A stretch of DNA of 64,000 nucleotides, from contig JAPLME010000007.1 of assembly GCA_026387175.1 (NCBI GenBank), forward strand, positions 128,487 through 192,486, in the 5' to 3' direction. The DNA comes from Candidatus Omnitrophota bacterium (lineage in GTDB: Bacteria; Omnitrophota; Gorgyraeia; 2-01-FULL-45-10). The notes beneath the pieces are model-generated. The model saw only the letters and a program-made list of their open reading frames with translations, had not been told where the DNA came from and ran no database searches. This document shows, one piece after another, positions 4,478 to 58,975 of this stretch. A program made the translations under genes and the position numbers. How positions within the stretch are numbered: the stretch's first letter is position 1; the number at the start of each line of letters is the position of its first letter.

Positions 4478-5547
4478 ACTTCTTCCAGTTTGTACTCCAG
4501 GCCTCCCAGACCCATCCTGCTCGCGTAGTTTAATTGCACTGACCAGTCCGTCTCCGGATAACCTGCGGCAAATACGTCTTTGCCGCTTGAAGCTTTGATC
4601 AGATCTACAGAAGCCTTATCGATGGCGACCGGATCGCGTGAGGCCAATATGCCAAGATCGTTAACTATCCGGGGATCATCCTTGGCCAGGCAATCACAGT
4701 CCTTAGTGACTTTAATGATGAAATTTATATACCCGACACTTGATTTGAATGAGTCGGTAACGCCTTTGGCATATTCTACCATCTTTTCCTGCAGGTTTTC
4801 AAGTGTTTCGCTCCACCTTATCTCTATAGCTTTTGTCTTGCAGACCACCGCGCATTCGCCGCAGCCCAGGCATGCGTCTTTCGCGATAGAGATCTTCTTA
4901 TTCTTCAGGCTTAGGGCGCCGCCCGGGCAGACCCCCACGCATTCACCGCAAGCCCCGCAATACGAAGAGTTCACCTCAGGCACCGTACCGCAATGCTGTT
5001 CGTATTTTCCCCGGCGCGAGGCGCATCCCATCCCCACATTTTTTATGGCTCCACCCATACCTGTCAGTATATGCCCTGTTATATGAGTCATGGCGAGCAG
5101 GCTGTCGCAATCCGCGAAATCGGATGCCATTTTTATCTTTGAAAAATGCTTGCCTTTTACCGGCACCTCTACGAAACTTCTGCCCCTTAGGCCGTCCGCT
5201 ATCAGGACCGGAACGCCGATGTTTTCCGGGTTGAATCCGTGCTCTGAGGCTATCTTTAGATGATCGATCGAGTTAGTGCGACTGCTGGCTTTGTATATAA
5301 CATTTGAATCGGCCAGGAAGGCGTTAGAGGTTATGCCCTTTACATGTTTTGCCGTCTCCCTGATCCATTCCCATCGGATGTGCCCGGTATTGCCCTTATC
5401 CCCGAAGTGCATCTTTATCGCTGTGAAGTCATCTTTCTTGATAAATGATAGCACCTTGCTTTTGTCGATCAGCACCCCGAGTTTCTTTGAGATGGCCTGG
5501 ACCGAATCCTGTGCGTCTACTTTTATATAATGGACTTTACTAGGCAT
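4471..5547 (-). CDS. DUF362 domain protein with 2x[4Fe-4S] ferredoxin domain
   Basis: Two CxxCxxCxxxCP clusters (CGACGECVGVCP, CLGCGECAVVCK) embedded in a DUF362-like scaffold. Confidence 0.65.
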   Translation of the reverse strand: MPSKVHYIKVDAQDSVQAISKKLGVLIDKSKVLSFIKKDDFTAIKMHFGDKGNTGHIRWEWIRETAKHVKGITSNAFLADSNVIYKASSRTNSIDHLKIASEHGFNPENIGVPVLIADGLRGRSFVEVPVKGKHFSKIKMASDFADCDSLLAMTHITGHILTGMGGAIKNVGMGCASRRGKYEQHCGTVPEVNSSYCGACGECVGVCPGGALSLKNKKISIAKDACLGCGECAVVCKTKAIEIRWSETLENLQEKMVEYAKGVTDSFKSSVGYINFIIKVTKDCDCLAKDDPRIVNDLGILASRDPVAIDKASVDLIKASSGKDVFAAGYPETDWSVQLNYASRMGLGGLEYKLEEVC

Positions 5548-6088
5548 AATTTTTATCCTTCTCGTTATATATTTTTATACTATGTTTCAGAAGAAGCGCC
5601 GCTGTGACACCGTTGCCTTTTTTCAAAGCCCCCGTAAAAGTACCATCGTAAATCATGCCGCATCCGCATGACGGGCTTTTTGATTTCAGCACAGCCCGTT
5701 TTATCCCGAACCTCTTTGCCATGAGAAGCGTTTTTCGGGCGCCTGAGGCCAGTTTCTCTGTAACGTCTTTACCGGATACGGTCCTCACCTTCGCTTTCCC
5801 GGTCAAAACCCGCTCGCCATCGCCGTCGGATATTTCGCAAGCCTCGCGCGGGATGGATGACCCGCCGAGCACCTCCGGACATACGGGTATGGCAGCGCCC
5901 TCCAGCACTAATTTCCTTATATTGCGTTTTAATTTGTTTTTGCCGTTATAAGTGCAATTTATTCCGGCGAGGCATGCGCTTACGATAAATTTACAGGAAG
6001 GCTTCTTAAGGTTATCCTTACTTCGAGGAGCAGCCATAATAGCCGATCTTGTGGCCGAGATCCCAGTATTCGCCCTGATTAAATACAA
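5540..6088 (-). CDS. DUF523 family protein (TudS-like, putative Fe-S thionucleobase desulfidase)
   Basis: Conserved ACLAG-NCTYNG ... SPSCG ... IYDG pattern. True start is likely the internal Met near 6040, because 6041-6088 overlaps the flavin-reductase gene. Confidence 0.55.
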   Translation of the reverse strand: MYLIRANTGISATRSAIMAAPRSKDNLKKPSCKFIVSACLAGINCTYNGKNKLKRNIRKLVLEGAAIPVCPEVLGGSSIPREACEISDGDGERVLTGKAKVRTVSGKDVTEKLASGARKTLLMAKRFGIKRAVLKSKSPSCGCGMIYDGTFTGALKKGNGVTAALLLKHSIKIYNEKDKNYA

Positions 6089-6578
6089 ATGGCTTTGCTT
6101 TGTTATAGTCTATCTTCCCGTCAGCGCGTAAGATCGCTTCATCTTTGTGCACGGCCACCACCTCTCCTATGAACATATCGTGAGAGCCCAGTTTGAGCAC
6201 ATCCTTAAGCTTGCATTCGATGTTAACGGGGCATTCCTTTATCATCGGACTGGATATCTTCGAAGATTTTACCGGGGTGAAGCAGCAGCGTTTGAATTTA
6301 TCGGTATCTTTTCCTGAGACGAGACCGCAGAGGTCGGCTTCTTTTAAAATGTCCTTTGACGGTATATTGACCACAAATTCACGTTCGGCGGTTATTAATT
6401 TATGGGAATGCCGGGAAGGCCTTATCGAAACCGATATCTGGGGAGGATTGGATGCCACAATGCCGCACCATGCTATGGTTATAACATTCGCCCTGCCCGC
6501 TTTCCTGTCAAGCACGCTTACAAGAACTACGGGAACCGGATATAATGCCTCACCAGGCGGGGCTTCCAGTTTGCGCAT
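6018..6578 (-). CDS. Flavin reductase-like FMN-binding domain protein
   Basis: Flavin_Reduct-like core (VITIAWCGIVASNPPQISVSIRP). Track ORF extends to 6671, but the upstream 31 codons overlap 6586..6888; start moved to the internal Met. Confidence 0.55.
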   Translation of the reverse strand: MRKLEAPPGEALYPVPVVLVSVLDRKAGRANVITIAWCGIVASNPPQISVSIRPSRHSHKLITAEREFVVNIPSKDILKEADLCGLVSGKDTDKFKRCCFTPVKSSKISSPMIKECPVNIECKLKDVLKLGSHDMFIGEVVAVHKDEAILRADGKIDYNKAKPFVFNQGEYWDLGHKIGYYGCSSK

Positions 6579-6585
6579 TTTACTG

Positions 6586-6888
6586 TCAGGTTTTCTGCGG
6601 CGCTTCTTCCGTCTTTGCGGGTTTTTTATTCGTGGTGCCCCAGCATCTCTTAGTGCAATAGTACTTGCCATTGCGGTAATACCAGCGTTTATTCTTTATG
6701 GACTTTTTGCAGCCCGCGCAATTAGCCGGTTTCTCCTTCACTACAGGAGCCGCTTCCTTCTTCTCTTCTTTCGCCTCAGCAGGTGCGGCTGCTGCCGGTG
6801 AAGCTTGTGCGGGCGCCGCCTGCGGTGTCACTGGCGCTTCCGGCGCTTTCGCTTCCTTCGTTAGCTCTTCTTTTTTTTCGTCTGCCAT
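6586..6888 (-). CDS. Small Ala/Pro/Lys-rich protein with C-terminal 4-Cys zinc-ribbon-like motif
   Basis: CAGC-x16-CTKRC. N-terminal low-complexity AP/KE-rich linker. Confidence 0.45.
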   Translation of the reverse strand: MADEKKEELTKEAKAPEAPVTPQAAPAQASPAAAAPAEAKEEKKEAAPVVKEKPANCAGCKKSIKNKRWYYRNGKYYCTKRCWGTTNKKPAKTEEAPQKT

Positions 6889-6911
6889 ACACCACCGTTA
6901 ATTGTTATCTG

Positions 6912-7265
6912 TTATGCCCTGTCAAGTATCTTCAACCACTGCAAATAAGTATATTCTAAAAGCCTTCCCCTGTCTGAATTATCGATCTTTGTGAACTTCA
7001 AACCCGTCTCATATGGGCCGGAGCTACCTGAGCCTTCCTGCTGCCACGCCACCTGGCATGCGGCAAATATCGGCACATTATCACCCGGCACGTCCACTGA
7101 GAGGTTTATTTCGGCGCCCTGTCCAAATCTCTTGTCGGTCAATACGAGAGCGCCTTCACTTGATATATTCTTAACTTTATACGATCTCTTGCATTTTTCG
7201 CTTACGATCTCGCATAACGCGTTTAACGCGGTATCGAACCTTAAGAATCTTCTTCTCTCGTTCAC
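6912..7265 (-). CDS. PilZ domain protein
   Basis: ERRRFLR (RxxxR) and NISSEG motifs. Confidence 0.65.
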   Translation of the reverse strand: MNERRRFLRFDTALNALCEIVSEKCKRSYKVKNISSEGALVLTDKRFGQGAEINLSVDVPGDNVPIFAACQVAWQQEGSGSSGPYETGLKFTKIDNSDRGRLLEYTYLQWLKILDRA

Positions 7266-7289
7266 GATGTCCTTTTTAGAATATTGGCA

Positions 7290-7336
7290 TAAAAAATAAG
7301 GGGATAAAAATTTATTATTTCTATCCCCTTATTTTT
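7290..7336 (-). terminator. Rho-independent (bidirectional) terminator
   Basis: A-tract, then AAGGGGATA, a 15-nt loop, TATCCCCTT, then a T6 tract. Lies 3' of 7356..7688. Confidence 0.6.
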
Positions 7337-7355
7337 TGGAAAACATCACAATGAA

Positions 7356-7688
7356 CTATTTTCCCTTAAATACAAATTCTGGCTCGAGAACCGGGGTATA
7401 GCCTTCCGGTATCGGGAATGGGAACGTCGCGGTCTCATATACTCCTGCGCCCGTTCTGACTATCGTCATTCCAACACCTTTCGCTAATCCGACCGTGAGG
7501 CCAGAGAGAGGATTGTCCTCTACGCTTGTATCATAGATATTCTTCGGAAGCTCGACCCAGCCGGTAACGATGTTGGCTAAGCCTCTATACAGCTTCTTAC
7601 CCATATCCTGAGCGTAACTAGCTGTCGCTATATTGAGTAACATTAATATAGCCACGCAAATTATAATTCCTTTTATCATGTTCTTCAT
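7356..7688 (-). CDS. Small secreted protein (signal peptide)
   Basis: N-terminal signal peptide. Own strong promoter and terminator. Short GWVELPKNIY motif. Confidence 0.5.
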   Translation of the reverse strand: MKNMIKGIIICVAILMLLNIATASYAQDMGKKLYRGLANIVTGWVELPKNIYDTSVEDNPLSGLTVGLAKGVGMTIVRTGAGVYETATFPFPIPEGYTPVLEPEFVFKGK

Positions 7689-7725
7689 TTTGATTTGTCA
7701 CCCCCCCTCATCTTGATTTGCCTAA

Positions 7726-7754
7726 AGTATAACACAAGATAAAAAAATTGTCAA
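7726..7754 (-). promoter_or_regulatory. Sigma70-like promoter (TTGACA-N17-TGtTATACT) for 7356..7688
   Basis: Perfect -35, 17-nt spacer, extended -10. GAGGGGGGG SD downstream. Confidence 0.5.
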
Positions 7755-7774
7755 GTTTATCGCAATATAAAAAA

Positions 7775-8146
7775 TCACTTCTGCCTTCGTACCTTCAATA
7801 TCTCATCAATGATATCGGATATCTTATCCCTATCCTCGGGCCTTATATCTATAAATTCAATGCCGGTGTCGTAATAGTAAGATCCCTTCTGCTTGGGATC
7901 GGTTTTCTTCACGACCCATACTAATGTGCCGCCGCACTTTATCTGGGGGCCTTTTTCGTCTATGAAGAGCTCTACGTCTACACCTTGAAAAAGACCGAGA
8001 TCCTCTTTCAGTAAAACGCATATGCCGCCCGCGCCGATGTTCTCCGTATGGGTCGATATGGTTTTAGCCGTCAGCCTCTTCTTTATGGATATGAGGCATT
8101 TATAGTTTGCCCTGGGAAACCTGCGCCTGTTGATACCATTCCACAT
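7775..8146 (-). CDS. PilZ domain protein
   Basis: NRRRFPR (RxxxR) and NIGAGG motifs. Confidence 0.65.
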   Translation of the reverse strand: MWNGINRRRFPRANYKCLISIKKRLTAKTISTHTENIGAGGICVLLKEDLGLFQGVDVELFIDEKGPQIKCGGTLVWVVKKTDPKQKGSYYYDTGIEFIDIRPEDRDKISDIIDEILKVRRQK

Positions 8147-8200
8147 AAATTAACTATGCCTCCATGATAAGCGTATCAAATTTATGCATTGCCGCGTGTT

Positions 8201-8229
8201 ATTATACATAACCGTAAATCAAAAAGCAA
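8201..8229 (-). promoter_or_regulatory. Sigma70-like promoter (TTGCTT-N17-TATAAT) for PilZ gene 7775..8146
   Basis: Perfect -10 hexamer, 17-nt spacer. Divergent from the exeA promoter. Confidence 0.4.
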
Positions 8230-8254
8230 GCACTTCTTGGCTAAAAATTTTATA

Positions 8255-8284
8255 TTTACAATATTAATGACGAGGGTGTATAAT
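8255..8284 (+). promoter_or_regulatory. Sigma70-like promoter (TTTACA-N18-TATAAT) for exeA-like gene
   Basis: Perfect -10 about 17 nt upstream of ATG 8301. No obvious SD, so possibly a short-leader transcript. Confidence 0.4.
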
Positions 8285-8300
8285 CTACCACAAGACATAT

Positions 8301-9116
8301 ATGTATAGAGAATTTTTCGGCTTAAAAGAGAAGCCCTTCAATATAACAAGCGACCCCAATTTCTTGTTCTTGAGCCGTGTCCATAAGGAAGCCCTATCCC
8401 ACCTGCTATATGGCATAAACGAACGGAAAGGTTTTCTCGAAATAACCGGCGAGGTCGGCGCCGGCAAGACTACCCTGTGCAGGGCGCTGCTTAACAGGCT
8501 TGATAAAAGGACTAAGAGCGCATTTATATTCAACTCCACGCTTCCGGAACTGCAGCTTCTGCAGGCTATACTTGAGGATTACGGTATAATAGTCACCAGC
8601 CGCAATAAGGTGTCGTTATTGAAACAGCTGAACAATTTCCTTATAGAGGAGCTCACGCGCGGAAACAATGTCGTGCTCATTATCGATGAGGCCCAGAACC
8701 TGAAGCCTTCGATACTCGAAGAGATAAGGATGCTTTCGAATCTTGAGACTGACAAGGATAAGCTTTTTCAAATCGTGCTGGTCGGACAGCCGGAGCTGAA
8801 AAACAAACTGGCTTCGCCCGGACTAAGGCAGCTCAGGCAGCGTATATCCGTACGTTTTCATATAACACCTCTTGATAAGGACGAGGTGGCGGATTACATA
8901 AGCCACAGGCTCGGCGTGGCCGGGTCGGCGGGCCAGATAACATTTGAGCCCGGAGCGATCGAGAAGATACATGATTTTTCAGGAGGCATACCTCGTCTTA
9001 TCAATATGGTCTGTGATAAATCCATGCTGACGGCGTATACGATGGAGACGATGAAAATAACCATGCCGATCGTGGAGCGCAGCATTCAAGAGATGGAAGG
9101 GTGTTTACCGAGATGA
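8301..9116 (+). CDS. ExeA/GspA-like AAA ATPase (secretin assembly)
   Basis: Walker A GEVGAGKTT, Walker B VLIIDEAQ. Characteristic ExeA N-terminal region (FGLKEKPF). Confidence 0.75.
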   Translation: MYREFFGLKEKPFNITSDPNFLFLSRVHKEALSHLLYGINERKGFLEITGEVGAGKTTLCRALLNRLDKRTKSAFIFNSTLPELQLLQAILEDYGIIVTSRNKVSLLKQLNNFLIEELTRGNNVVLIIDEAQNLKPSILEEIRMLSNLETDKDKLFQIVLVGQPELKNKLASPGLRQLRQRISVRFHITPLDKDEVADYISHRLGVAGSAGQITFEPGAIEKIHDFSGGIPRLINMVCDKSMLTAYTMETMKITMPIVERSIQEMEGCLPR

Positions 9117-9646
9117 GTATTATTCAGGAGGCGCTGGAAAAAGCGCAATCGGATGTAAAGGATGTAAAGCCTGCCGTGCAGGAAATTGCGAAGGCATCCG
9201 GAGTTAAGAAAGCGCCTGTGACTAAAAAGGCGCCTATAGCTAACAAGAGAGCGCTGATGGCGGTTGTGCTTTTAGCTCTTATGACCTTTGCGGTGTTTTC
9301 AGCCGGAAGATTTTTATCAAAGATAGGCGATAGAACGGACAGGACGAGCGCCGCGAACTCGCAGGAAGTCAGCTACAGGCCTCTTGTCAGGGATCAAGCG
9401 AAGAGCCCTAATACTGCCGGCAGTCGGGAACAGATAAGCGTTTCCCCGGAAAACCTGAAGGCGCCGGAGAGCCCGAAGCTCGTTTTAAACGGAATAATGT
9501 ATTTGGATGACGGCCCGAGAGCGATAATAAACAATTTTATAGTAGGATTGGGTGACTCGGTGAGCGGCGCGAAAGTTACCAGGATAAACCGCCAAAGCGT
9601 TATTCTTGAATATCAGAATGTGGAGATAACGCTTAGCTTAAAGTGA
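9101..9646 (+). CDS. Membrane-anchored GspB/ExeB-like C-terminal domain protein
   Basis: 16-nt overlap with exeA. Single TM helix. C-terminal LNGIMY..PRAIINNFIVGLGDSVSGAKV resembles the GspB C-terminal domain. Confidence 0.45.
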   Translation: MFTEMSIIQEALEKAQSDVKDVKPAVQEIAKASGVKKAPVTKKAPIANKRALMAVVLLALMTFAVFSAGRFLSKIGDRTDRTSAANSQEVSYRPLVRDQAKSPNTAGSREQISVSPENLKAPESPKLVLNGIMYLDDGPRAIINNFIVGLGDSVSGAKVTRINRQSVILEYQNVEITLSLK

Positions 9647-10097
9647 GCTCGAGCTTATGGATATTGAAACCGCTTACCGATAGAGTGTCGGTTTCCTTGA
9701 AGCCTTTTTTGATGCATAGCTTCATCGCGTCCGACATCCTGTCGGTGCATCTGAAGCAAATCTTCTTGTAATTATTCTTCCTGCAAAAATCAATCGCTTT
9801 TTCAATGAGTTCCGATCCGTAACCGTGGCGGCGGCGTTTTACATCAACGAACAACCTGCGTAATAAAGCTGTATCGCTGGTCTCCATCTTGACCCCGACG
9901 GTTCCCGCTACCTGGGAGCCTTCATCAATGACAAAGAACGCGTCTTTTTTTCCCCCGTATGTCTCGCCGATCTTTTCCAGATCGCTGTCGGAGTAAGCGG
10001 ACTTATCAAAAGGATATTCTCCGGCGAGTATACCGAGTATCAGTTCTTTTACGCTGTTGGCGTCGCTCTTTTTATATGCTCTTAAAGTATGTTCCAT
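9633..10097 (-). CDS. GNAT family N-acetyltransferase
   Basis: Acetyl-CoA binding motif RRHGYGSELI. Confidence 0.7.
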   Translation of the reverse strand: MEHTLRAYKKSDANSVKELILGILAGEYPFDKSAYSDSDLEKIGETYGGKKDAFFVIDEGSQVAGTVGVKMETSDTALLRRLFVDVKRRRHGYGSELIEKAIDFCRKNNYKKICFRCTDRMSDAMKLCIKKGFKETDTLSVSGFNIHKLELTLS

Positions 10098-10120
10098 AGT
10101 TCGAGTCCTCCGGTAAGAAT

Positions 10121-11215
10121 TTAGATTTTAATATAGCCTTTCAAGGCGTTGCGTATGACCGAACCGGCCACACCATCAACCACTCTAGCGCTGCCTATCC
10201 TGCTTGCCAGAATGAAACGGTTCCTGCCGTCCGCAAATTTCTTATCATGAAGATGGGCCTCATAAACCTTCGAGATCGCCAGTCCTTTTATTGAGACGGG
10301 CAGTCCGACTTTCTTGATGAGCCTCTCCACCCTATCGGCTTCCGATTCTTTGATAAGTCCAAGATCGGAGGCTATGCGGCCTGCCGCCAGCATGCCTATT
10401 GCTATCGCCTCCCCGTGTCCGTATCTGTCGGAGTAACCGGCTGCCGCTTCTACGGCATGTCCTATGGTGTGCCCGTAATTTAATACGGCCCTGACGCGTT
10501 TTCTGTCGAGTTCGTCTTTGGCTACGATGTCGGATTTGATCTTGCCGGATCTCGACACTATGTACTCAAGCGCGCCTTCTTCAAGCTTCATTATTCTTTT
10601 GTAATTTGATTCAAGGTACCCGAATAGCGCGGCATCTTTTATGACGCCGTATTTTATTATTTCGGCGAGACCATTTCGTATCTGTCTGACTGAAAGCGTC
10701 CGCATAGCCGACACATCGGATATAACCGCTTTTGGCTGATAAAAAGAGCCGACCAGGTTCTTTGCTACGTCCAGGTCCACGCCCACTTTTCCGCCTATCG
10801 AGGAGTCCACCTGCGCCAGTAGTGTCGTGGGTATCTGCACATAAGGGACGCCTCTCTTATATATAGAGGCGACGAAACCCGCAAGATCTCCTACGACCCC
10901 GCCGCCTAGAGCTATTATGAAGATGCGCTTATTGAGGTCATAGCGGCTTAACCTGTTCAATACGTCTGAGGCAACGGATAGAGATTTTGCCTTCTCAGAA
11001 TCGGCTATAAACTCGAAATGCGCTGTGAAGGAATTTCGCTTAAGGGTCTTTTCGATGGCACGCTTATAGAGAGCCGCTACACGGCGGTTTGTGATGACTA
11101 CGGCGTCCGATCCGACATCAAGATTTTTAAGTATGCGTCCGCACTTACCGATCAGGCCGCGGCCTATCAGTATATCATACGAGCGCTCTCCGAGCCGGAC
11201 TCTTATTTTCTTCAT
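10121..11215 (-). CDS. aroB: 3-dehydroquinate synthase
   Basis: Full-length DHQ synthase: GGGVVGDLAGF nucleotide-binding motif and metal-binding His cluster. Confidence 0.9.
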   Translation of the reverse strand: MKKIRVRLGERSYDILIGRGLIGKCGRILKNLDVGSDAVVITNRRVAALYKRAIEKTLKRNSFTAHFEFIADSEKAKSLSVASDVLNRLSRYDLNKRIFIIALGGGVVGDLAGFVASIYKRGVPYVQIPTTLLAQVDSSIGGKVGVDLDVAKNLVGSFYQPKAVISDVSAMRTLSVRQIRNGLAEIIKYGVIKDAALFGYLESNYKRIMKLEEGALEYIVSRSGKIKSDIVAKDELDRKRVRAVLNYGHTIGHAVEAAAGYSDRYGHGEAIAIGMLAAGRIASDLGLIKESEADRVERLIKKVGLPVSIKGLAISKVYEAHLHDKKFADGRNRFILASRIGSARVVDGVAGSVIRNALKGYIKI

Positions 11216-52190: not shown

Positions 52191-52646
52191 TTATCGTCCT
52201 GCGTTTTTCGGTTGATTTTTTTCAGCGACCTTTCCCTGTCCGCTTAAAAGTATATCGATAAATTTCGTGGACGGCTCGCGCAGTATCCTGTCATTGGAAT
52301 AAGCCGAGAAGACGTTGAGAGCCTTAAGGTAATCTACCCCCATCACATCTATGTCTATTTTATATTTGTTTCGAACCTCTTCTAAATATTCGGTTATAAA
52401 TTTTTCTTTTTGTTTTTCGGTCAACATATACCACTCGCGCATGGTGACCCTGGAGCCGTCCCATCTGGCTTTTTCTTTCGGAAAGAAAAATACCTCGGGG
52501 GCATTATTCGGATTGTATGAGTATATGCTTTCAAGCGGCATAATAGACGAGCCGGTATCCTGGTCCTCCGACTCTCCCGCATGCGCGAAGTTGCAGAGTA
52601 CTAAGGCTACTATTGAAGTAACAAAAACCGTAGATAACTTTTTCAT
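52191..52646 (-). CDS. Secreted hypothetical protein
   Basis: Signal peptide. No recognisable motif. Confidence 0.4.
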   Translation of the reverse strand: MKKLSTVFVTSIVALVLCNFAHAGESEDQDTGSSIMPLESIYSYNPNNAPEVFFFPKEKARWDGSRVTMREWYMLTEKQKEKFITEYLEEVRNKYKIDIDVMGVDYLKALNVFSAYSNDRILREPSTKFIDILLSGQGKVAEKNQPKNAGR

Positions 52647-52669: not shown

Positions 52670-52942
52670 CTATTGTCGGCAATAGGGGCATCCAGGGTAT
52701 TCTGCCCCACTGGCTATAACCTCTCTTATATTGACACATGCGAACATGCTTCCGGAAACAGACTGTTGAAGCCCGTGCCTTGCCACGTATACGCTGCAAT
52801 TGTAAGTACCGTCCGCGCGTTTTGTAAGATTAGCGCACGGGTCGCTCGTAGAAGCTCCGCAGCACTCACCGCACCTTTTGCAGAGAGCTTCATACGCTTC
52901 ATTCTGATATTCAAGCTTCTTAAAGTAAGCCAGGTCATCCAT
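52670..52942 (-). CDS. YkgJ/UPF0153 family Cys-rich (Fe-S / Zn) protein
   Basis: CKRCGECCG...C...C...CPYC cluster. Confidence 0.6.
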   Translation of the reverse strand: MDDLAYFKKLEYQNEAYEALCKRCGECCGASTSDPCANLTKRADGTYNCSVYVARHGLQQSVSGSMFACVNIREVIASGAEYPGCPYCRQ

Positions 52943-52994
52943 AATAAATTATGATTATATCACTAAGGCGGAGTTGGGGTCAAGCTGCTGAATA

Positions 52995-55900
52995 TTATGC
53001 GGCGGTTATAACCGCTTTGGCATGCTCGTATATCTGTCTTAATTCTTCCGCGTCTATAGGTGTAATCGGCAGGAGTTTTATCAGTTTCTTTAAGGAGGCG
53101 ATTATCTTATTAATATCGCCTGTTGCGAGGGCAATAATATCGTCCGAGGTAAGGTTAAAATTCTTCAGGTCGTTTGCATCACATACGTTTTTCAACTCTT
53201 CCAGTATCTCCAGCTGTATCTTGTCTTTGAAAGCTTGATCTCTGGTTATATCGATTCCCTTCTCCTTTATCTCTTGCGCAATATCCATCATCTTTAATCC
53301 CAGTATGGTTGCCCTTATTAGTCCCGCGGGATCGTTCTGCAGGCCTATGGGAGAAAGAATAGTATCCTCAGTCTTTACATTGAGATTTCCAAGCCTTGAA
53401 CGAATAGCGGCCTGGTCGAGCTCTTCGCCTTTAAGAGCCGGGAACAAGGTAATGGTATTTTCCCTCGTCCGTTTAAAGTCTTTCGGTAGAGGCTTCTTTT
53501 CTAAGCCGTATCTCTGATATATGCTTTCGCTCACCTCTCCCGTGCCTGACATGTAGTAGAATTCCACATGCCCATTGGGTGCTTTTTGGAATATCGTGAG
53601 GAAGTTTTTGATATTATCCGTGTTTATGGATTCGACAGCCTCTATAGGAACTCTCACTAGAATATTTTGTTTATCGTCACTGAGCAAGTCCTTAATAAAT
53701 ATTTTGTTTTTATCAATGTAGGTGCTTTGATCTTTAGCTGTAACCGTCCTCCCCTCCTTTGAACTATTAGTTATATTACCTAGTGGCGCTGCAGGGGGCA
53801 ATAACCTAACGATTAAGTGATTGCCTTTAATTGTTATAGGCAATCCATGAATATCTTCTGTTCTCTCTAGCTTTTCAACAAGAGATTTGAATAAATCCTC
53901 GCGCTGTTCTTTTGGTATGCTCTCAACATCTGTATCTACTATGAACATATCTGCTTCCGAACTTTGCTTAAAATAATTTTCAGCGGCCAAAGCGATAAAT
54001 TTGAAGAGCTTGGCTACCGGTACGTATGAATAGCCTCCTGCGTTGCCTTTGGTTATGCCAAAAAATAAAGACGTCTCTCTTACTTCAATACGGCTATTCC
54101 AATTATGGTAGAATGATTTTCGCGTTTCTTCAGGCAGTATTTTTTCTATCTCTTGTTTTAATCGCCCAAATTCGTCATCGAACAATTCCGCCCCATATCC
54201 TTTTCTTGCCAATTTCCTTAATCGATATTCATAATATCTTTCTTCTTCATCTAATTGTTCTATTTTCTCGCGGTCAGCAAATTCCAAAACATCTCTTAAA
54301 ACCGACGGAACCAAATTATTTCGGGTACCCTCATCAGTACCAGTGCCATATCCTGCCATATCCATGGCATTAACTATGCAAAGAATCTTCAGAAATTCAT
54401 CAGGGAAGCCTTTCAATAGACGCGGGACCTTCTTCCCCCTGATAATGTTCCCCAGAGTGTCGTGATGGGTTATTATCCTGCCCACTTCGTCGATAATGTT
54501 TTCTGACGCTACTTCGTCTTTTAATGCTTGAAGCGCCAATTTTGCGCCACGGATAGGATGGTCGGCGTCGCTGACATTTTCTTCCGTATATCCGATATCG
54601 TGCAATATGACGGCCATTATTAAAGCATCTTTCTGCCCGTCTGCCAGCATAGAATAGAAGCCGTATAATTTTTTAATACCCCCGGCATATTCTATTCTGC
54701 TTTCTTTATCCGCCAATTCGAATTTCTTTCCTTTGGTGCGATCGCACAATGTAGCATAGAAATAATCAAAATCCTTATTAATCAATCGGTTAAGGCATTG
54801 GATAACCATCAAAACATGCTCCAATTTATACGGCACGGGCCCCTGGGAATAATCGATCTCCGGAAAAACTTTTGCGATATGCTCTCTGAGTCCTGAAACA
54901 CTTATGGCCTTATTATCTTTTATGTACTTAACCAAAAGATCCAGCTGAATTTTGCGAGATGCATCATTTTTAAACGCTCCATCCGCTGAGGGTCTTGCCT
55001 GAGGCGAGATTGCCATGGTTATTTGTTCAATAAGGCTTTTGCGAATTTCTTTAATGTTGTCGGGGTGCCGCCTTCCCTCCTCAACCCATTTCTTCCACTG
55101 ATCAACATGCTCCAGAAGGATTCTGATCACAGCTTCCTTGAGCTTTTCATCGAGTGGTACCGATGGCTTGATTATGTTCCTGTTTTGATGAAGACTGTAA
55201 ATCATTAATCGGACCCGGTAAGGATCCGTCTCATTAAATACCACCCTGAATATTCCCAAGGCAGATTTCATTTTCTTAAATTTCTCCGCATAGTTTTGTA
55301 TGAGTGCGGTTTCATCAAATCTACTATTCTCAAAGGTGGGTGATAGATTACAAAGAATACCATCGCTAATTCCTTTATAAATAGCGATGAAATCCAGATC
55401 GCTTTTTTTAATTTGTTTGTTTAATTCCTTAAGAACATCGTCCTTAAAAGGGTTAAAAAAATTATAGGGCGATTTTGAAACTACAATTTCTTTTCCCTTT
55501 GAATCCCGGTTATAATATTGCTGCGCAATAAACATATGATTTCGCCAAATCAAAAACTGCGAACGGAAATTATCAGAGCTTTCAAATTTTGGATGGGAAA
55601 GAAAAACATCGGAAATCATGGCTTTTTTCAAGCCGCTAAGCCAATATCTGTAGCCGATGTCATTTTCGTCTGAAAACATAAAGAGCCTGGTATCAAATCC
55701 GCCGATAAGTCGGAACATGTCTGCTCTCACCAATTGAGCCGTTCCCATCATCGTAGGCTCTTTATAATAAAGATTGGGCGCGGCTTTCACTAGAGACTCT
55801 CCACTTCCTTCTAAAAGCGTTTTAATAAATTTCGATGTGTACTCTTCTGCTCTTTGCCGTTGTTCGGGCAAAAGATCGCCATCGATGGGAACCTTCTCAT

Positions 55901-58040
55901 TAGCATTAAAAACAAATATGCTCGGTTGAAGAGCGCCTATCTCGGGACGACCTTTTATGGCATTCACCATTTTCTTAAGCCCGTCGCTTTCAAGACGAGC
56001 ATCATTATTGAGAAAGAATACGTAATCGCTGCTTTGCTTTAAAGCGATCCGGGCCGCTTGATTATTTCCACCCGTGTAACCCAGGTTCACTCGGTTTGTA
56101 ACAAGTTTAATCCTGTCTTTCAATTTTTCAGCGCTTGATAATGGAAGACGACGAAGGAGGTTTTTAAAGTTACTATTGAAATGCTTCGAAAATTTATCAG
56201 GGGAATTGTTATCCACGAGGATTATGTCGAAATTATCATAGGTTGTATGGGATAAATTTTCAAGGGCTCTAAGCGTTTGATCCGCGGAGTTGCCGTAATG
56301 TAAAATAACTACGGAGACCTTTGGATTATCTTTCAGCTGCTCATGGGGTCTCGCATGGCTCAAAAACCATTCGAGGTCTTCTTGTAAATACCGCAGCGCA
56401 TCCGCATCTTCATTAAGGGGAGTCATTAGCTCTATTCTTTGTTTTATAATCCCTGCAGTTCTTGGATCATATTTTTCAAGTTTTTTAATTTTATCCAAGA
56501 TATTTGCAAAAATCGGATTCTCTGTCGCCAATTGTGCATCTTTAGATACGTTCTGTTGCGATAACCATTTTACTCGATGTATGATCTGTCTATTCAATCG
56601 GGGGCTTATAACTTTCGTTGAAAGCTTCGCTATATCAGCGTACGGGGTTATAACATTAGCTTTCGTAGGATCAAAATAGCGAACGGCCAACCCTTCGTTC
56701 GGAATTTCGATGATAATTTCATTGAGCAATACCTTTACGCTAGGGTTCTTTTTTTCTACCTCAGAGTAAAACATAGCGTTATTTAATGCCTCAACATGAA
56801 AATTATTGGTCAGCTTCCATTTAGAACCGCTTTTTCCCACTGATCCAGAACGTCGCACCACCTCCTCGACGATCTTTAATGCCCTATTAACATTGCCGCC
56901 CTCTTTACCCATTTCTCTTCTTGTTATTTCAAGAAAATCCCTGAAGAATATCGAAGCGTTCTGGCGGATAAGCTCCTTTATCTCAGGAATAAAATAACAT
57001 TCCGGATCGCAATTCTCCAACAGTTTGCCCAACATAAACTCCATTATGTCTGTCTGTTTTGCGCGACGTCTTTCTGTATGACTTAAAACAACCTTGACAC
57101 GGTTATTTATCTCATCATCCTCACTGCCTGTATCACTATACATTTTTGTGTCGAAATATTTTTCAGTGATTCCTGGTTCCTTCCTGTGATTTCGTCTATA
57201 GGTTCTTGTCGTCTCAACAAGCTTTTCCTGATCTATCAATTGATCATATGTATCGGCATCGCGAACTAATAACGCCTCGATGCTATCGGGTTTAGGAAGA
57301 TTTTCCTGACTCTCATTTATATAGCCTTTAGGATAATCTTTTACCCGATAATTCACTGGAGTGCCTCTGTGAGATCTTATGATATGCTTAACTCTGTCTA
57401 TGCGTGTTGCAGGCCAGTCCTTGTCATGCCAATCCTCTAAAATCTTACCAATAAATCCGGCGCCTTCCTCGTGATGCCCCAAACGTGTTTTAATGCCTGT
57501 GGAGCCAAGCCCTTTGATATCATGCGTAAAAGCCCCTATGGCAAGGGCTTCTCTATCTACTTCGAAATTATAATATTCTGCCCATTCAAAAGCTTTCTTA
57601 GTAACATCTATTGCATGGTTAAAACCATGCACGGGATCCGTATGAAAAACTATAAATTCATCGGTAGATAGCTTCGTTTCCAATTCTTCTATTATTCGTT
57701 CTAAAATTTTATATGGAACATTGGAATGAAGGAAGGTCGTTCTTATTGTTTCGATTTTCTGACGAGTTATGTCTTTTTTATCAGACATCTTATTTGGTAA
57801 TACTGCTACAGCGTCAGGATTCTTTTCCGTGTCTAACCTGGCTAATACATCTCTCAGATATGATTTATCATCGAGATTACCGTCATGTTCGATGTGTTTG
57901 CATATCGCGCCTACGGTGAAGGAGTATTTAAAGTCTTCACTGTTAAGTCGTAATTCGGGCGCCAGCTTATTATTTTGGTCTGCCAGGCAGAGAGAAGATA
58001 GAAAAGCTCCTATGAGAATAACTGCGAGGGCCTTCTTCAT
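52995..58040 (-). CDS. Giant (about 1680 aa) signal-anchored multidomain protein: HD - GT2 glycosyltransferase - HD
   Basis: HD1 (HGFNH...FTHDIKG...RDADTYD). GT2 (VSVVILHYGNS...DIILVDNNSPD...FFLNNDA). HD2 (ILHDIGYTEE...HHDTLG). About 450-aa C-terminal region of unknown function. Likely start MKKALAVILIGAF (signal/anchor); track start is 15 codons upstream (GTG). Confidence 0.7.
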   Translation of the reverse strand: MKKALAVILIGAFLSSLCLADQNNKLAPELRLNSEDFKYSFTVGAICKHIEHDGNLDDKSYLRDVLARLDTEKNPDAVAVLPNKMSDKKDITRQKIETIRTTFLHSNVPYKILERIIEELETKLSTDEFIVFHTDPVHGFNHAIDVTKKAFEWAEYYNFEVDREALAIGAFTHDIKGLGSTGIKTRLGHHEEGAGFIGKILEDWHDKDWPATRIDRVKHIIRSHRGTPVNYRVKDYPKGYINESQENLPKPDSIEALLVRDADTYDQLIDQEKLVETTRTYRRNHRKEPGITEKYFDTKMYSDTGSEDDEINNRVKVVLSHTERRRAKQTDIMEFMLGKLLENCDPECYFIPEIKELIRQNASIFFRDFLEITRREMGKEGGNVNRALKIVEEVVRRSGSVGKSGSKWKLTNNFHVEALNNAMFYSEVEKKNPSVKVLLNEIIIEIPNEGLAVRYFDPTKANVITPYADIAKLSTKVISPRLNRQIIHRVKWLSQQNVSKDAQLATENPIFANILDKIKKLEKYDPRTAGIIKQRIELMTPLNEDADALRYLQEDLEWFLSHARPHEQLKDNPKVSVVILHYGNSADQTLRALENLSHTTYDNFDIILVDNNSPDKFSKHFNSNFKNLLRRLPLSSAEKLKDRIKLVTNRVNLGYTGGNNQAARIALKQSSDYVFFLNNDARLESDGLKKMVNAIKGRPEIGALQPSIFVFNANEKVPIDGDLLPEQRQRAEEYTSKFIKTLLEGSGESLVKAAPNLYYKEPTMMGTAQLVRADMFRLIGGFDTRLFMFSDENDIGYRYWLSGLKKAMISDVFLSHPKFESSDNFRSQFLIWRNHMFIAQQYYNRDSKGKEIVVSKSPYNFFNPFKDDVLKELNKQIKKSDLDFIAIYKGISDGILCNLSPTFENSRFDETALIQNYAEKFKKMKSALGIFRVVFNETDPYRVRLMIYSLHQNRNIIKPSVPLDEKLKEAVIRILLEHVDQWKKWVEEGRRHPDNIKEIRKSLIEQITMAISPQARPSADGAFKNDASRKIQLDLLVKYIKDNKAISVSGLREHIAKVFPEIDYSQGPVPYKLEHVLMVIQCLNRLINKDFDYFYATLCDRTKGKKFELADKESRIEYAGGIKKLYGFYSMLADGQKDALIMAVILHDIGYTEENVSDADHPIRGAKLALQALKDEVASENIIDEVGRIITHHDTLGNIIRGKKVPRLLKGFPDEFLKILCIVNAMDMAGYGTGTDEGTRNNLVPSVLRDVLEFADREKIEQLDEEERYYEYRLRKLARKGYGAELFDDEFGRLKQEIEKILPEETRKSFYHNWNSRIEVRETSLFFGITKGNAGGYSYVPVAKLFKFIALAAENYFKQSSEADMFIVDTDVESIPKEQREDLFKSLVEKLERTEDIHGLPITIKGNHLIVRLLPPAAPLGNITNSSKEGRTVTAKDQSTYIDKNKIFIKDLLSDDKQNILVRVPIEAVESINTDNIKNFLTIFQKAPNGHVEFYYMSGTGEVSESIYQRYGLEKKPLPKDFKRTRENTITLFPALKGEELDQAAIRSRLGNLNVKTEDTILSPIGLQNDPAGLIRATILGLKMMDIAQEIKEKGIDITRDQAFKDKIQLEILEELKNVCDANDLKNFNLTSDDIIALATGDINKIIASLKKLIKLLPITPIDAEELRQIYEHAKAVITAA

Positions 58041-58216
58041 TAATTTGTGGAGATATTTATGTAATCCTAAAACAATCATATACACAAGTATAGCATATGA
58101 TTACGTTAAATCAATACAAAGTAAGATAACTTTTTTGAGTTTTAACTTGGGTGAATGTAAAAGCCGTATGGGACGTTTAAGCATCCCCTACGATTGTGGA
58201 TAACCATAGCGCTGCG

Positions 58217-58975
58217 CTACAATTCGCTTATAAGCCTAAGGCCGTTAAGGGTGAGGTCTTCGTCAACTATCTGGATGGATTTCGAGTAGCGCTTTATGAG
58301 TGAGGCATTACCGCCTGTAGCGATGATCCTGGTCCTCTTACCTAACATCTTTCTGTATTTTGCGGCTAAAGCGTCACACATAGCCCCGAGCCCGAACAAT
58401 ATGCCGCCGCGCATACTGTTTACTGTGTCACGACCGATGATGGATAAGGCAGGTTTTAATTTAATATTGGGCAAGAGCGCTGTCTTCTTATGCAAACTTG
58501 ACAGGGACATCTCGATGCCCGGAAATATCAAGCCGCCGAGATAATCCCCTCTTGTGGAGACTACATCGAATGTTATCGCAGTTCCGAAATCGATTATGAC
58601 TGCCGGCTTACCGTATAAAGTCTTCGCCGCAAACGCGTTTACCAGCCTGTCCTGGCCTACTTCGCTTTTGATTCTATAAAGATTCCTGATCGGCACAATC
58701 TTATCCCGGCCGATTACCGAAATATTACATTTCACAACCTTGTTAAGCGCCGCGATAAGCCTGGAAAGAGCGAGCGGCACAACGCTTGAAATAACGATAT
58801 TCAGCGCATCGCCGTGCTTAAGGCCGGCAAGATTACAAATACCGCTTAAGTGTCTTCCGTGGAGATAGTATGAGTTGGTGGGCACCTTAATCTTCCTTAC
58901 GAGCTTGGCGCCTTTAAAAAGGCCGACTGTGATATTCGTGTTACCTATGTCTGCTGCAAGCATAATATTATTCAT
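58217..58975 (-). CDS. coaX: Type III pantothenate kinase
   Basis: Start LAADIGNTNITVGLF. Acetate/sugar kinase fold. Confidence 0.85.
   Translation of the reverse strand: MNNIMLAADIGNTNITVGLFKGAKLVRKIKVPTNSYYLHGRHLSGICNLAGLKHGDALNIVISSVVPLALSRLIAALNKVVKCNISVIGRDKIVPIRNLYRIKSEVGQDRLVNAFAAKTLYGKPAVIIDFGTAITFDVVSTRGDYLGGLIFPGIEMSLSSLHKKTALLPNIKLKPALSIIGRDTVNSMRGGILFGLGAMCDALAAKYRKMLGKRTRIIATGGNASLIKRYSKSIQIVDEDLTLNGLRLISEL

Follow-up and report, generated by a model that had tools for sequence, protein, structure and literature searches.

An Omnitrophota protein with two HD domains and a family-2 glycosyltransferase domain is one member of a family built on conserved N- and C-terminal modules with exchangeable enzyme payloads

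Omnitrophota are uncultured, ultra-small and probably host-dependent bacteria. One published account regards them as dependent on hosts, living as predators or parasites (PMC10066038). Two preprints (bioRxiv 10.64898/2026.06.07.730766; bioRxiv 10.1101/2023.11.21.568195) list MTase, HATPase_c, GNAT, HAD, HD, starch synthase and radical SAM among the Pfam domains of giant proteins from this phylum, and report a signal peptide or transmembrane (TM) helix in 94% of its long proteins. Here we analyse a long open reading frame (ORF) on the minus strand of a 64,000-nt stretch of the Omnitrophota contig JAPLME010000007.1 (hereafter the window; coordinates are positions in the whole stretch). Its product, the query, combines a unique payload with the shared parts of an Omnitrophota family not modelled before: an N-terminal module (N-module) and a C-terminal module (C-module), together referred to as the N/C frame. 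Signal-bearing multi-enzyme polypeptides are known in the phylum; what appears to be new is a mid-sized family with conserved N- and C-modules and insertion hot-spots. The available parts of the two Omnitrophota giant-protein preprints and of a 2023 Nature Microbiology paper do not mention this conserved frame, which may be described elsewhere.

Among 5.8 billion proteins searched, the identical protein from a metagenome-assembled genome (MAG) was recovered together with 21 others of 950–2860 amino acids (aa). The matches to these 21, at 54–75% identity, each extend over just 5–23% of the query, and the shared pieces lie at residues 1–85, ~430–500 and 1441–1681 (BLASTP). The middles of the 21 proteins are unrelated enzymes. 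We aligned the 21 C-modules (alignment A1) and searched the resulting profile with HMMER against 1.84 billion cluster representatives. At E ≤ 1e-3 this found 226 proteins, of which 148 reached E ≤ 1e-30. In each of the best 150 of the 226, the match reaches the last residue or nearly so, and in 174 of the 175 sequences with a complete module the C-module stops at most 5 residues from the C-terminus. The query itself scores 449 bits against A1 at residues 1434–1681 of 1681. It also matches a hidden Markov model (HMM) of the N-module, in two pieces (model positions 15–83 and 71–142, E 2.8e-65). This HMM was built from close seeds and leaves distant members undetected; it matched 84 of 182 C-module sequences. 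No Pfam or NCBIfam model matched either module.

The initial annotation, prepared from the DNA letters, had called a single real ORF with a signal- or anchor-type N-terminus, two HD domains and one family-2 glycosyltransferase (GT2) domain. On these points it was right: the ORF is uninterrupted and the sole long one of its interval (ORF listing), both flank junctions are clean, there is one N-terminal hydrophobic segment, and all three domains score above the Pfam gathering cut-offs. It had also regarded the linkers and a C-terminal region of ~450 aa as lacking any recognisable motif, and the protein as a one-off HD–GT2–HD enzyme. Neither description holds. Residues 1–85, residues 430–500 and the final ~245 residues, which are 55–78% identical to the ends of other large proteins, are the conserved pieces by which the family is recognised, and the HD, GT2 and HD domains are the interchangeable payload of a large family, as BLASTP and the C-module profile show.

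The deposited identical protein (P0001) is a 1681-aa entry of Candidatus Omnitrophica named ‘HD domain-containing protein’; residue numbers of modules follow this version, which begins at ATG 58040. Two further in-frame starts are available, GTG 58085 (1696 codons) and ATG 58079 (1694 aa). Because the N-termini of homologues, for example MISGLRLYRYSCKLIKKALAV of P0002, align with MIVLGLHKYLHKLMKKALAV of the query, ATG 58079 appears favoured over the deposited 58040, and the start remains ambiguous. The first HD domain occupies residues 155–281 (Pfam PF01966, whole-protein E 4e-14, 53.3 bits against a 22-bit gathering cut-off). The second, scanned alone, reaches 24.1 bits against the same cut-off (E 4.8e-5). 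The NCBIfam model HDIG (TIGR00277) gives 26.7 bits, slightly below its 27.6-bit cut-off. The metal-binding pattern H…HD…D can be read as HAID…THDIKG…RDAD and ILHDIGY…HHD…AMD, and both domains belong to the HD family; no NCBIfam match at equivalog level allows a specific enzyme to be named. The glycosyltransferase domain is a GT2 (GT-A) domain by profile and motif: Pfam PF00535 (Glycos_transf_2) matches residues 591–720 (E 1.2e-13, 51.8 bits against a 23.3-bit cut-off), with a weak match of PF13641 (Glyco_tranf_2_3) over residues 588–843, and the motifs VVILHYGN, ILVDNNS (with the nucleotide-binding Asp) and FFLNNDA (DxD-type) are present. NCBIfam equivalogs gave weak partial GT2 matches far below their cut-offs, so that no specific GT2 subfamily can be assigned, and the sole match in a sequence search of the PDB was a weak one of the GT2 domain to SpsA (E 0.015).

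The frame begins with a predicted Sec-type signal peptide and a short L(A/S)P motif, and its main parts are an N-module of ~110 aa and a C-module of ~245 aa. The N-module carries the motif string …L(A/S)P…ICxxIE…EIxIExP…RYFDP…RQIIH…. In most members it directly follows the signal peptide (N-module HMM). It immediately precedes the C-module in L009, P0059 and P0107, and is placed after several hundred payload residues in L005, L010 and P0061; the L(A/S)P motif stays beside the signal peptide. Inserts split the N-module in P0001, P0015, P0017, P0107 and L014, and those of P0015, P0017, P0107 and L014 lie at or near the position of the first HD insertion of the query. Because the two halves of the N-module are contiguous in most other members, the first HD domain of the query is, by sequence comparison, an insertion within a conserved N-module. 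The two modules are adjacent in some members and split or displaced by inserts in others, and the alignments therefore indicate that they act as one unit of ~350 aa that tolerates insertions in at least three places, namely behind the L(A/S)P motif, within the N-module and where the two modules meet. The query uses two of these, with an HD domain in the N-module and the GT2 domain plus an HD-containing cassette between the modules. The second HD cassette (395 aa) is 72.5% identical in P0002 (BLASTP) and is the sole payload that the query shares with another member. The payload of P0002 is otherwise different and includes an APH kinase domain; its HD cassette comes without a GT2 domain.

The payloads of the family are diverse. 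Pfam domains in the database matches include radical SAM, B12-binding, HAD, several methyltransferases, Fic, APH, GHMP kinase, NAD-epimerase, CoaE, EPSP-synthase-like, deaminase (dCMP-type, with MafB19-like matches), PHP, MbnB/TglH and GNAT. When 13 locus proteins and 45 other representatives were scanned with Pfam, the list grew by adenylate-kinase-like, NTP transferase, LpxC, UDP-GlcNAc 2-epimerase, Glu/Leu dehydrogenase with HEAT repeats, CheB, DnaJ, histidine phosphatase, glucosamine-6-P isomerase, CofD, metallophosphoesterase, HATPase_c and GH127 domains. Proteins with GT5 form a subfamily of ~1800–1960 aa (P0102, P0112, P0118, P0119, P0123, P0125, P0131, P0137, P0140, P0149, P0150 and P0164) conserved from end to end with 36–46% identity over ~1600 aa, which combines the C-module with a starch-synthase-like GT5 domain. 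This domain was detected in three of the four subfamily members scanned, between the N-terminal segment and the C-module, and in the two sequences inspected (P0140 and P0102) the N-terminus is signal-like and leads into the L(A/S)P motif. Unlike the hypervariable members, the GT5 subfamily looks vertically inherited on this sequence comparison.

Two further fusions are encoded beside family loci. The first (L017:2219–8179, plus strand; 1986 aa) has a signal-type N-terminus and combines PPDK_N with an enolase whose C-terminal barrel domain precedes its N-domain. The second (L006:99–3950, minus strand; 1283 aa) has a signal-type N-terminus and a full transketolase. Homology of the C-module to the C-termini of the enolase/PPDK and transketolase fusions was considered and rejected, as hhalign gave a probability of at most 1%. 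Because these two proteins contain no detectable N- or C-module, the placing of central-metabolism enzymes on signal-like N-termini is a wider habit than the N/C-frame family.

The N-terminal segment of the query points to export. It is the single TM-like hydrophobic segment of the protein (MKKALAVILIGAFLSSLCLA|DQ), and no internal one was found on the Kyte–Doolittle scale. Lys and Arg precede it, acidic residues follow it, and small residues occupy positions −3 and −1. The N-terminus of a typical member has basic residues, then 15–20 hydrophobic ones, then SWA|QEE or GWA|KE, where the query has CLA|DQ. In sequence terms the pattern is that of a cleavable Sec signal and not of a lipobox. When full-length members were tested crudely by hydropathy for a hydrophobic segment at the N-terminus, 84 of 128 passed. 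At the opposite end of the protein, the terminal residue is Ala in 167 of 175 members, 96 of which finish in ‘AA’ (window positions 52998–53003). Such a terminus suggests that the free C-terminus either serves as a recognition element, perhaps for a PDZ domain or a tail-specific protease, or is buried in the fold.

AlphaFold2 gave the C-module alone a predicted local distance difference test (pLDDT) score of 81 in one of five models. For the natural N+C stretch of P0059, modelled with a 57-row alignment in which N-only and C-only rows were left unpaired, every model gave the C-module a pLDDT of 93–98. In the predicted fold, four β-strands alternate with helices, and a helical half comes after them. 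The invariant residues are R32-V-P-x-E36, N58, E62, R95-x-N97-T98-x-T100, K106, S132-P-x-G135, D139 and R145 (A1 alignment numbering), and the polar ones among them lie in or beside the predicted strands. In Rossmann-like folds, the usual ligand site is at the C-terminal ends of the strands. The Rossmann-like half of the C-module, in which Arg, Lys, Ser, Thr, Asn and Asp residues that never vary are placed at or beside the predicted strands and may cluster in space, is a candidate binding site for a ligand that is anionic or carries phosphate. The arrangement recalls the Rossmannoid core of HAD enzymes, in that Ser, Lys and Asp are found at or beside strands 2, 3 and 4 like motifs II–IV, as read from the alignment and predicted secondary structure. 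In contrast to HAD phosphatases, motif I (DxDxT) is replaced by the invariant RVPxE at the end of strand 1, for which reason we rejected HAD membership of the C-module. Sequence identity is ~10%, Pfam and NCBIfam gave no HAD match on the C-module region, and Foldseek found nothing significant for the C-module. At most, the C-module would be a degenerate, non-phosphatase HAD relative.

Family proteins range from 0.6 to 4.4 thousand aa (kaa), the largest member seen having 4,420 aa. Scanning one genome per GTDB species identified 17 loci, all in MAGs named Omnitrophota or ‘uncultured Planctomycetia’, and the family was found here only in Omnitrophota-type genomes. Bins named ‘uncultured Planctomycetia bacterium’ account for 6 of the 17 loci (L002, L003, L004, L009, L011 and L013); these are either mislabelled Omnitrophota, or the family reaches another lineage of the Planctomycetes–Verrucomicrobia–Chlamydiae (PVC) group. 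One MAG carries three unlinked family copies, with C-modules that are 55–75% identical. These are no closer to each other than copies from different genomes, and concerted evolution within one genome was therefore rejected. Candidate ‘empty-frame’ proteins were rejected as well, since the short matches (300–500 aa) resemble truncated gene calls. In one locus the family gene (L015:5219–10554) is spread over three consecutive ORFs (5219–6514, 6511–9147 and 9235–10554), representing a pseudogene or a sequencing frameshift.

The gene stands out from its surroundings in composition. Sliding GC content falls to 0.36–0.44 over the gene, from 0.46–0.50 on either side, in agreement with the AT-rich segment seen by the initial annotation. 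The gene has a GC of 0.403 and a GC at third codon positions (GC3) of 0.402, compared with 0.478±0.023 and 0.560±0.032 in the 51 other window ORFs of at least 150 codons, a GC3 deficit of ~5 standard deviations (SD). GC is low in every segment of the gene, least so in the C-module (GC3 0.48). Family genes are also AT-rich relative to their flanks in L001 (0.374 versus 0.490), L003 (0.404 versus 0.523) and L017, but not in L007, L008 and L009; AT-richness is therefore not intrinsic to the N/C-frame family.

The insertion site was defined by synteny. Upstream of the gene lie coaX, birA and uvrB (all by Pfam), and downstream lie HMGL-like, KDPG-aldolase and ACT-domain genes. The flanks proposed earlier hold for coaX and birA; the ‘YkgJ-type’ label of the Cys-rich neighbour comes from its CxxCxxCC motif, and this ORF has no Pfam match at E ≤ 1e-3. 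With the window CoaX as query, a metagenome scan recovered 24 loci, and in all 24 a family member after coaX is absent. The three closest relatives (L019, L033 and L041) share the order uvrB–birA–coaX–ykgJ-like–orf151–HMGL–aldolase–ACT, with a spacer of only ~55–130 bp between coaX and the ykgJ-like gene. Identity between L041 and the window is 97% for HMGL, 88% for the ykgJ-like gene and 90% for coaX. About 130 bp upstream of the gene have no counterpart in the coaX–ykgJ spacer of these relatives, and this segment contains a promoter-like site. The −10-like TATACT at 58092–58087 combined with a start at ATG 58079 would make the mRNA nearly leaderless. The ykgJ-like gene has a strong promoter of its own (TTGACC-18-TATAAT, 52983–52954), which is conserved in L041. 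Local alignment revealed no target-site duplication, repeats or mobility genes marking the borders of the insertion, and tblastn with each module found no paralogue in the window. The absence of the gene at the coaX–ykgJ-like site in relatives, together with the 5-SD GC3 deficit, supports a recent arrival by lateral transfer or by transposition from elsewhere, and gives the horizontal acquisition proposed at first a basis in synteny. A phage or viral origin was rejected, as no relative was present in the viral contigs of IMG/VR.

Table 1. Positions of the ORF, its modules and payloads, and the neighbouring features in the window.
Feature	Position	Strand	Basis and remarks
Whole ORF	52995..58085	−	1696 codons from GTG 58085; stop codon 52995–52997
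Putative signal peptide	57981..58079	−	Kyte–Doolittle and translation; basic n-region, hydrophobic h-region, site …FLSSLCLA|DQNN like that of signal peptidase I
N-module, first half (residues 21–85)	57786..57980	−	BLASTP, 43–82% identity to N-termini of 21 members; HMM 15–83; KLAP motif, nearly invariant …AICKHIE…
Payload 1, inside N-module (residues 86–429, first HD domain)	56754..57785	−	Pfam HD ~57243–57623; BLASTP and N-module HMM
N-module, second half (residues 430–505)	56526..56753	−	HMM 71–142; 54–82% identical to other members; …EIIIEIPNEGLAVRYFDPTKANVITPY…RQIIHR…
Payload 2, family-2 glycosyltransferase domain (GT-A)	55557..56324	−	PF00535; PF13641 weak
Payload 3, ~395-aa cassette with second HD domain	53805..54989	−	Pfam HD ~54447–54641; cassette common to P0002
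C-module (last ~248 aa)	52998..53741	−	Modelled four-stranded Rossmann-like α/β half, then helical half; protein ends …LLPITPIDAEELRQIYEHAKAVITAA
Promoter-like site TTGATT-16-TATACT with TG, directly upstream of ORF	58087..58114	−	Consensus match only
coaX (type III pantothenate kinase), upstream flank	58217..58975	−	Pfam; synteny
Downstream junction; ~25 bp past the stop, conserved promoter and leader of the ykgJ-like gene	52943..52994	−	Near base-for-base match to L041, 51-column alignment into the gene start
90-aa Cys-rich ORF (CxxCxxCC; CKRCGECCG…CPYC), downstream flank	52670..52942	−	Directly after coaX in L019, L033 and L041
151-aa ORF with its own signal peptide (MKKLSTVFVTSIVALVLCNFAHA)	52191–52646	−	No Pfam match; after the ykgJ-like gene in L019 (60%) and L041 (81%)

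Taken together, the most probable explanation, in our view, is a constant exported frame with a common function that carries a swappable enzyme payload and acts at the envelope or the cell–host interface. Sec would export the protein, after which the signal peptide would be removed. The constant frame would supply a post-export step common to all members, such as targeting or sorting, retention, delivery or ligand binding, and the payload would supply the activity specific to each member. For the query, this would be hydrolysis of a phosphorylated nucleotide or metabolite and sugar transfer from a nucleotide sugar. The envelope or cell–host interface, rather than the cytoplasm, is the most likely site of action because Omnitrophota are episymbiotic or predatory in lifestyle and have giant surface proteins with the same enzyme repertoire. 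A more specific version, in which the N/C frame is a phylum-specific sorting or delivery chassis that sends arbitrary enzymes to the surface or into the host or prey cell, with the effector repertoire evolving through cassette exchange and lateral transfer, is possible, though we hold it only tentatively.

Several observations weigh against an exported frame. The main difficulty is that many payloads are typically cytoplasmic: radical SAM domains require an Fe–S cluster, methyltransferases S-adenosylmethionine (SAM), kinases ATP, and LpxC, the 2-epimerase and the glycosyltransferases UDP- or ADP-sugars. Such cofactors and substrates are not known to be available in the periplasm or outside the cell. 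About a third of the members fail the hydropathy test, several of these being truncated gene calls, and the export call itself was read by eye from hydropathy, charge distribution and the −3/−1 pattern. The N-module has a pLDDT below 50 in the P0059 model, so that contact between the N- and C-modules is conjectural. Finally, an all-versus-all comparison of the 17 loci and the window found no ORF family in more than three loci, and thus indicates no secretion or anchoring partner.

Because so many payloads need cytoplasmic cofactors, a membrane-tethered cytoplasmic scaffold stays in contention, although we regard it as unlikely. Here the N-terminal segment would be an uncleaved anchor, the enzymes would work on the cytoplasmic side or in a cytoplasm-like compartment, and the frame would serve as a module for oligomerisation, regulation or co-localisation. 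Housekeeping-type, cofactor-dependent payloads such as LpxC, UDP-GlcNAc 2-epimerase, Glu dehydrogenase, GT5 and radical SAM with B12-binding would find a natural place in such a scaffold, as would the seemingly vertical inheritance of the ~1800–1960-aa GT5 subfamily and the neighbouring signal-bearing fusions with enolase, PPDK and transketolase. A 2026 preprint (10.64898/2026.06.07.730766) also takes the domains of giant proteins that have only TM segments to be cytoplasmic. What speaks for export instead is the N-terminus itself: from Lys/Arg before and acidic residues after the hydrophobic stretch, together with SWA|Q-type motifs, it is predicted to be oriented N-in and to be cleaved, with most of the protein lying outside. 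The copy in the window is moreover dispensable, being missing from the same locus in close relatives, and Fic, deaminase, GNAT and CheB-like payloads are typical of delivered effectors.

We find it improbable that the query is a stand-alone HD–GT2–HD enzyme in which three domains act on one nucleotide-linked substrate or signalling nucleotide and the rest is linker. All three domains do keep their metal- or nucleotide-binding motifs along with scores above the Pfam thresholds, and this exact combination was found in no other protein. The supposed linkers, however, are the most conserved parts of the protein and recur with unrelated payloads. As the first HD domain is a separate insertion in the N-module and the second HD cassette occurs without GT2 in P0002, the three domains look independently acquired rather than co-evolved.

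Even less credible is a polymorphic toxin or interbacterial competition locus resembling Rhs, contact-dependent inhibition (CDI) or MafB systems with an immunity gene. Variable domains that include MafB19-like deaminases, Fic and GNAT would suit it, as would the atypical GC and the recent insertion, but the variable region is central rather than C-terminal, the genes downstream in the window are the ancestral neighbours, no small downstream gene recurs in the 17 loci, and epimerase, dehydrogenase, GT5 and radical SAM payloads are not toxin-like. An assembly chimera or pseudogene, with genes joined by misassembly or read-through, might be suspected from the unusual length and composition and from the locus split into three ORFs (L015), but is hardly conceivable given that a stop-free frame of 5.1 kb in ~40% GC DNA is improbable by chance, that the order N-module, cassette, C-module recurs on the contig of P0002, which is independent, as it does in over 100 independent assemblies, and that GC is uniformly low over all segments between clean flank junctions.

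The two HMMs provide a sequence signature with which hundreds of candidate exported enzymes can be found, and hint at one piece of cell biology that these may have in common; the family may bear on the question of how Omnitrophota interact with their hosts. At least three permissive sites in a frame of ~350 aa amount to a natural experiment in domain insertion. The name ‘HD domain-containing protein’ covers the exchangeable payload only, which calls for caution in annotation. If the frame merely tethers ordinary metabolic enzymes, this would still be an unusual metabolic organisation in reduced genomes.

Among described systems, MARTX toxins resemble the family in having constant N- and C-terminal ends around a variable, shuffled central array of effector domains. 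They differ in their long glycine-rich repeat ends and their cysteine protease domain, and they are secreted by the type I route with no Sec signal; the Pfam families of the MARTX repeats and cysteine protease are absent from the query and the scanned family members, and a Sec-type signal is predicted here. Type V autotransporters and the cargo of type IX secretion systems (T9SS), which bears a C-terminal domain (CTD), resemble the family in the order of their parts: a signal peptide, which is predicted in the family, then a variable region and a conserved domain at the extreme C-terminus. However, the C-domain of autotransporters forms a 12-stranded β-barrel and the CTD of the T9SS a β-sandwich of ~80–100 aa, whereas the C-module is predicted to be a Rossmann-like α/β domain with a helical bundle. 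Unlike such cargo, the family has an additional N-module, and the payload can precede both modules. No Pfam autotransporter or CTD match was found in the query or the modules, and the family therefore does not classify as type V or type IX cargo. Nor does it have the C-terminal toxin and immunity gene of polymorphic toxins: its variable region is internal, and no neighbour recurs in the 17 loci.

The multi-enzyme long and giant proteins of Omnitrophota (Nielsen & Lui 2026; the Archaeovorin and Dockerin-type giants of West-Roberts et al. 2023) are found in the same phylum and likewise place cytoplasmic-type enzymes on a polypeptide that starts with a signal or TM segment. Those giants have at least 10,000 aa, mostly carry many TM helices and are described as sequence-unique, with 80% singletons, whereas members of the N/C-frame family usually have just the N-terminal segment. 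At ~1.69 kaa the query is far shorter than the proteins of the 2026 catalogue (at least 10,000 aa), and shares with them several enzyme Pfams and a signal or TM segment. MTase, HAD, HD, GNAT, HATPase_c, radical SAM, starch synthase and PPDK_N make up the enzyme repertoire that the Omnitrophota giants have in common with the family.

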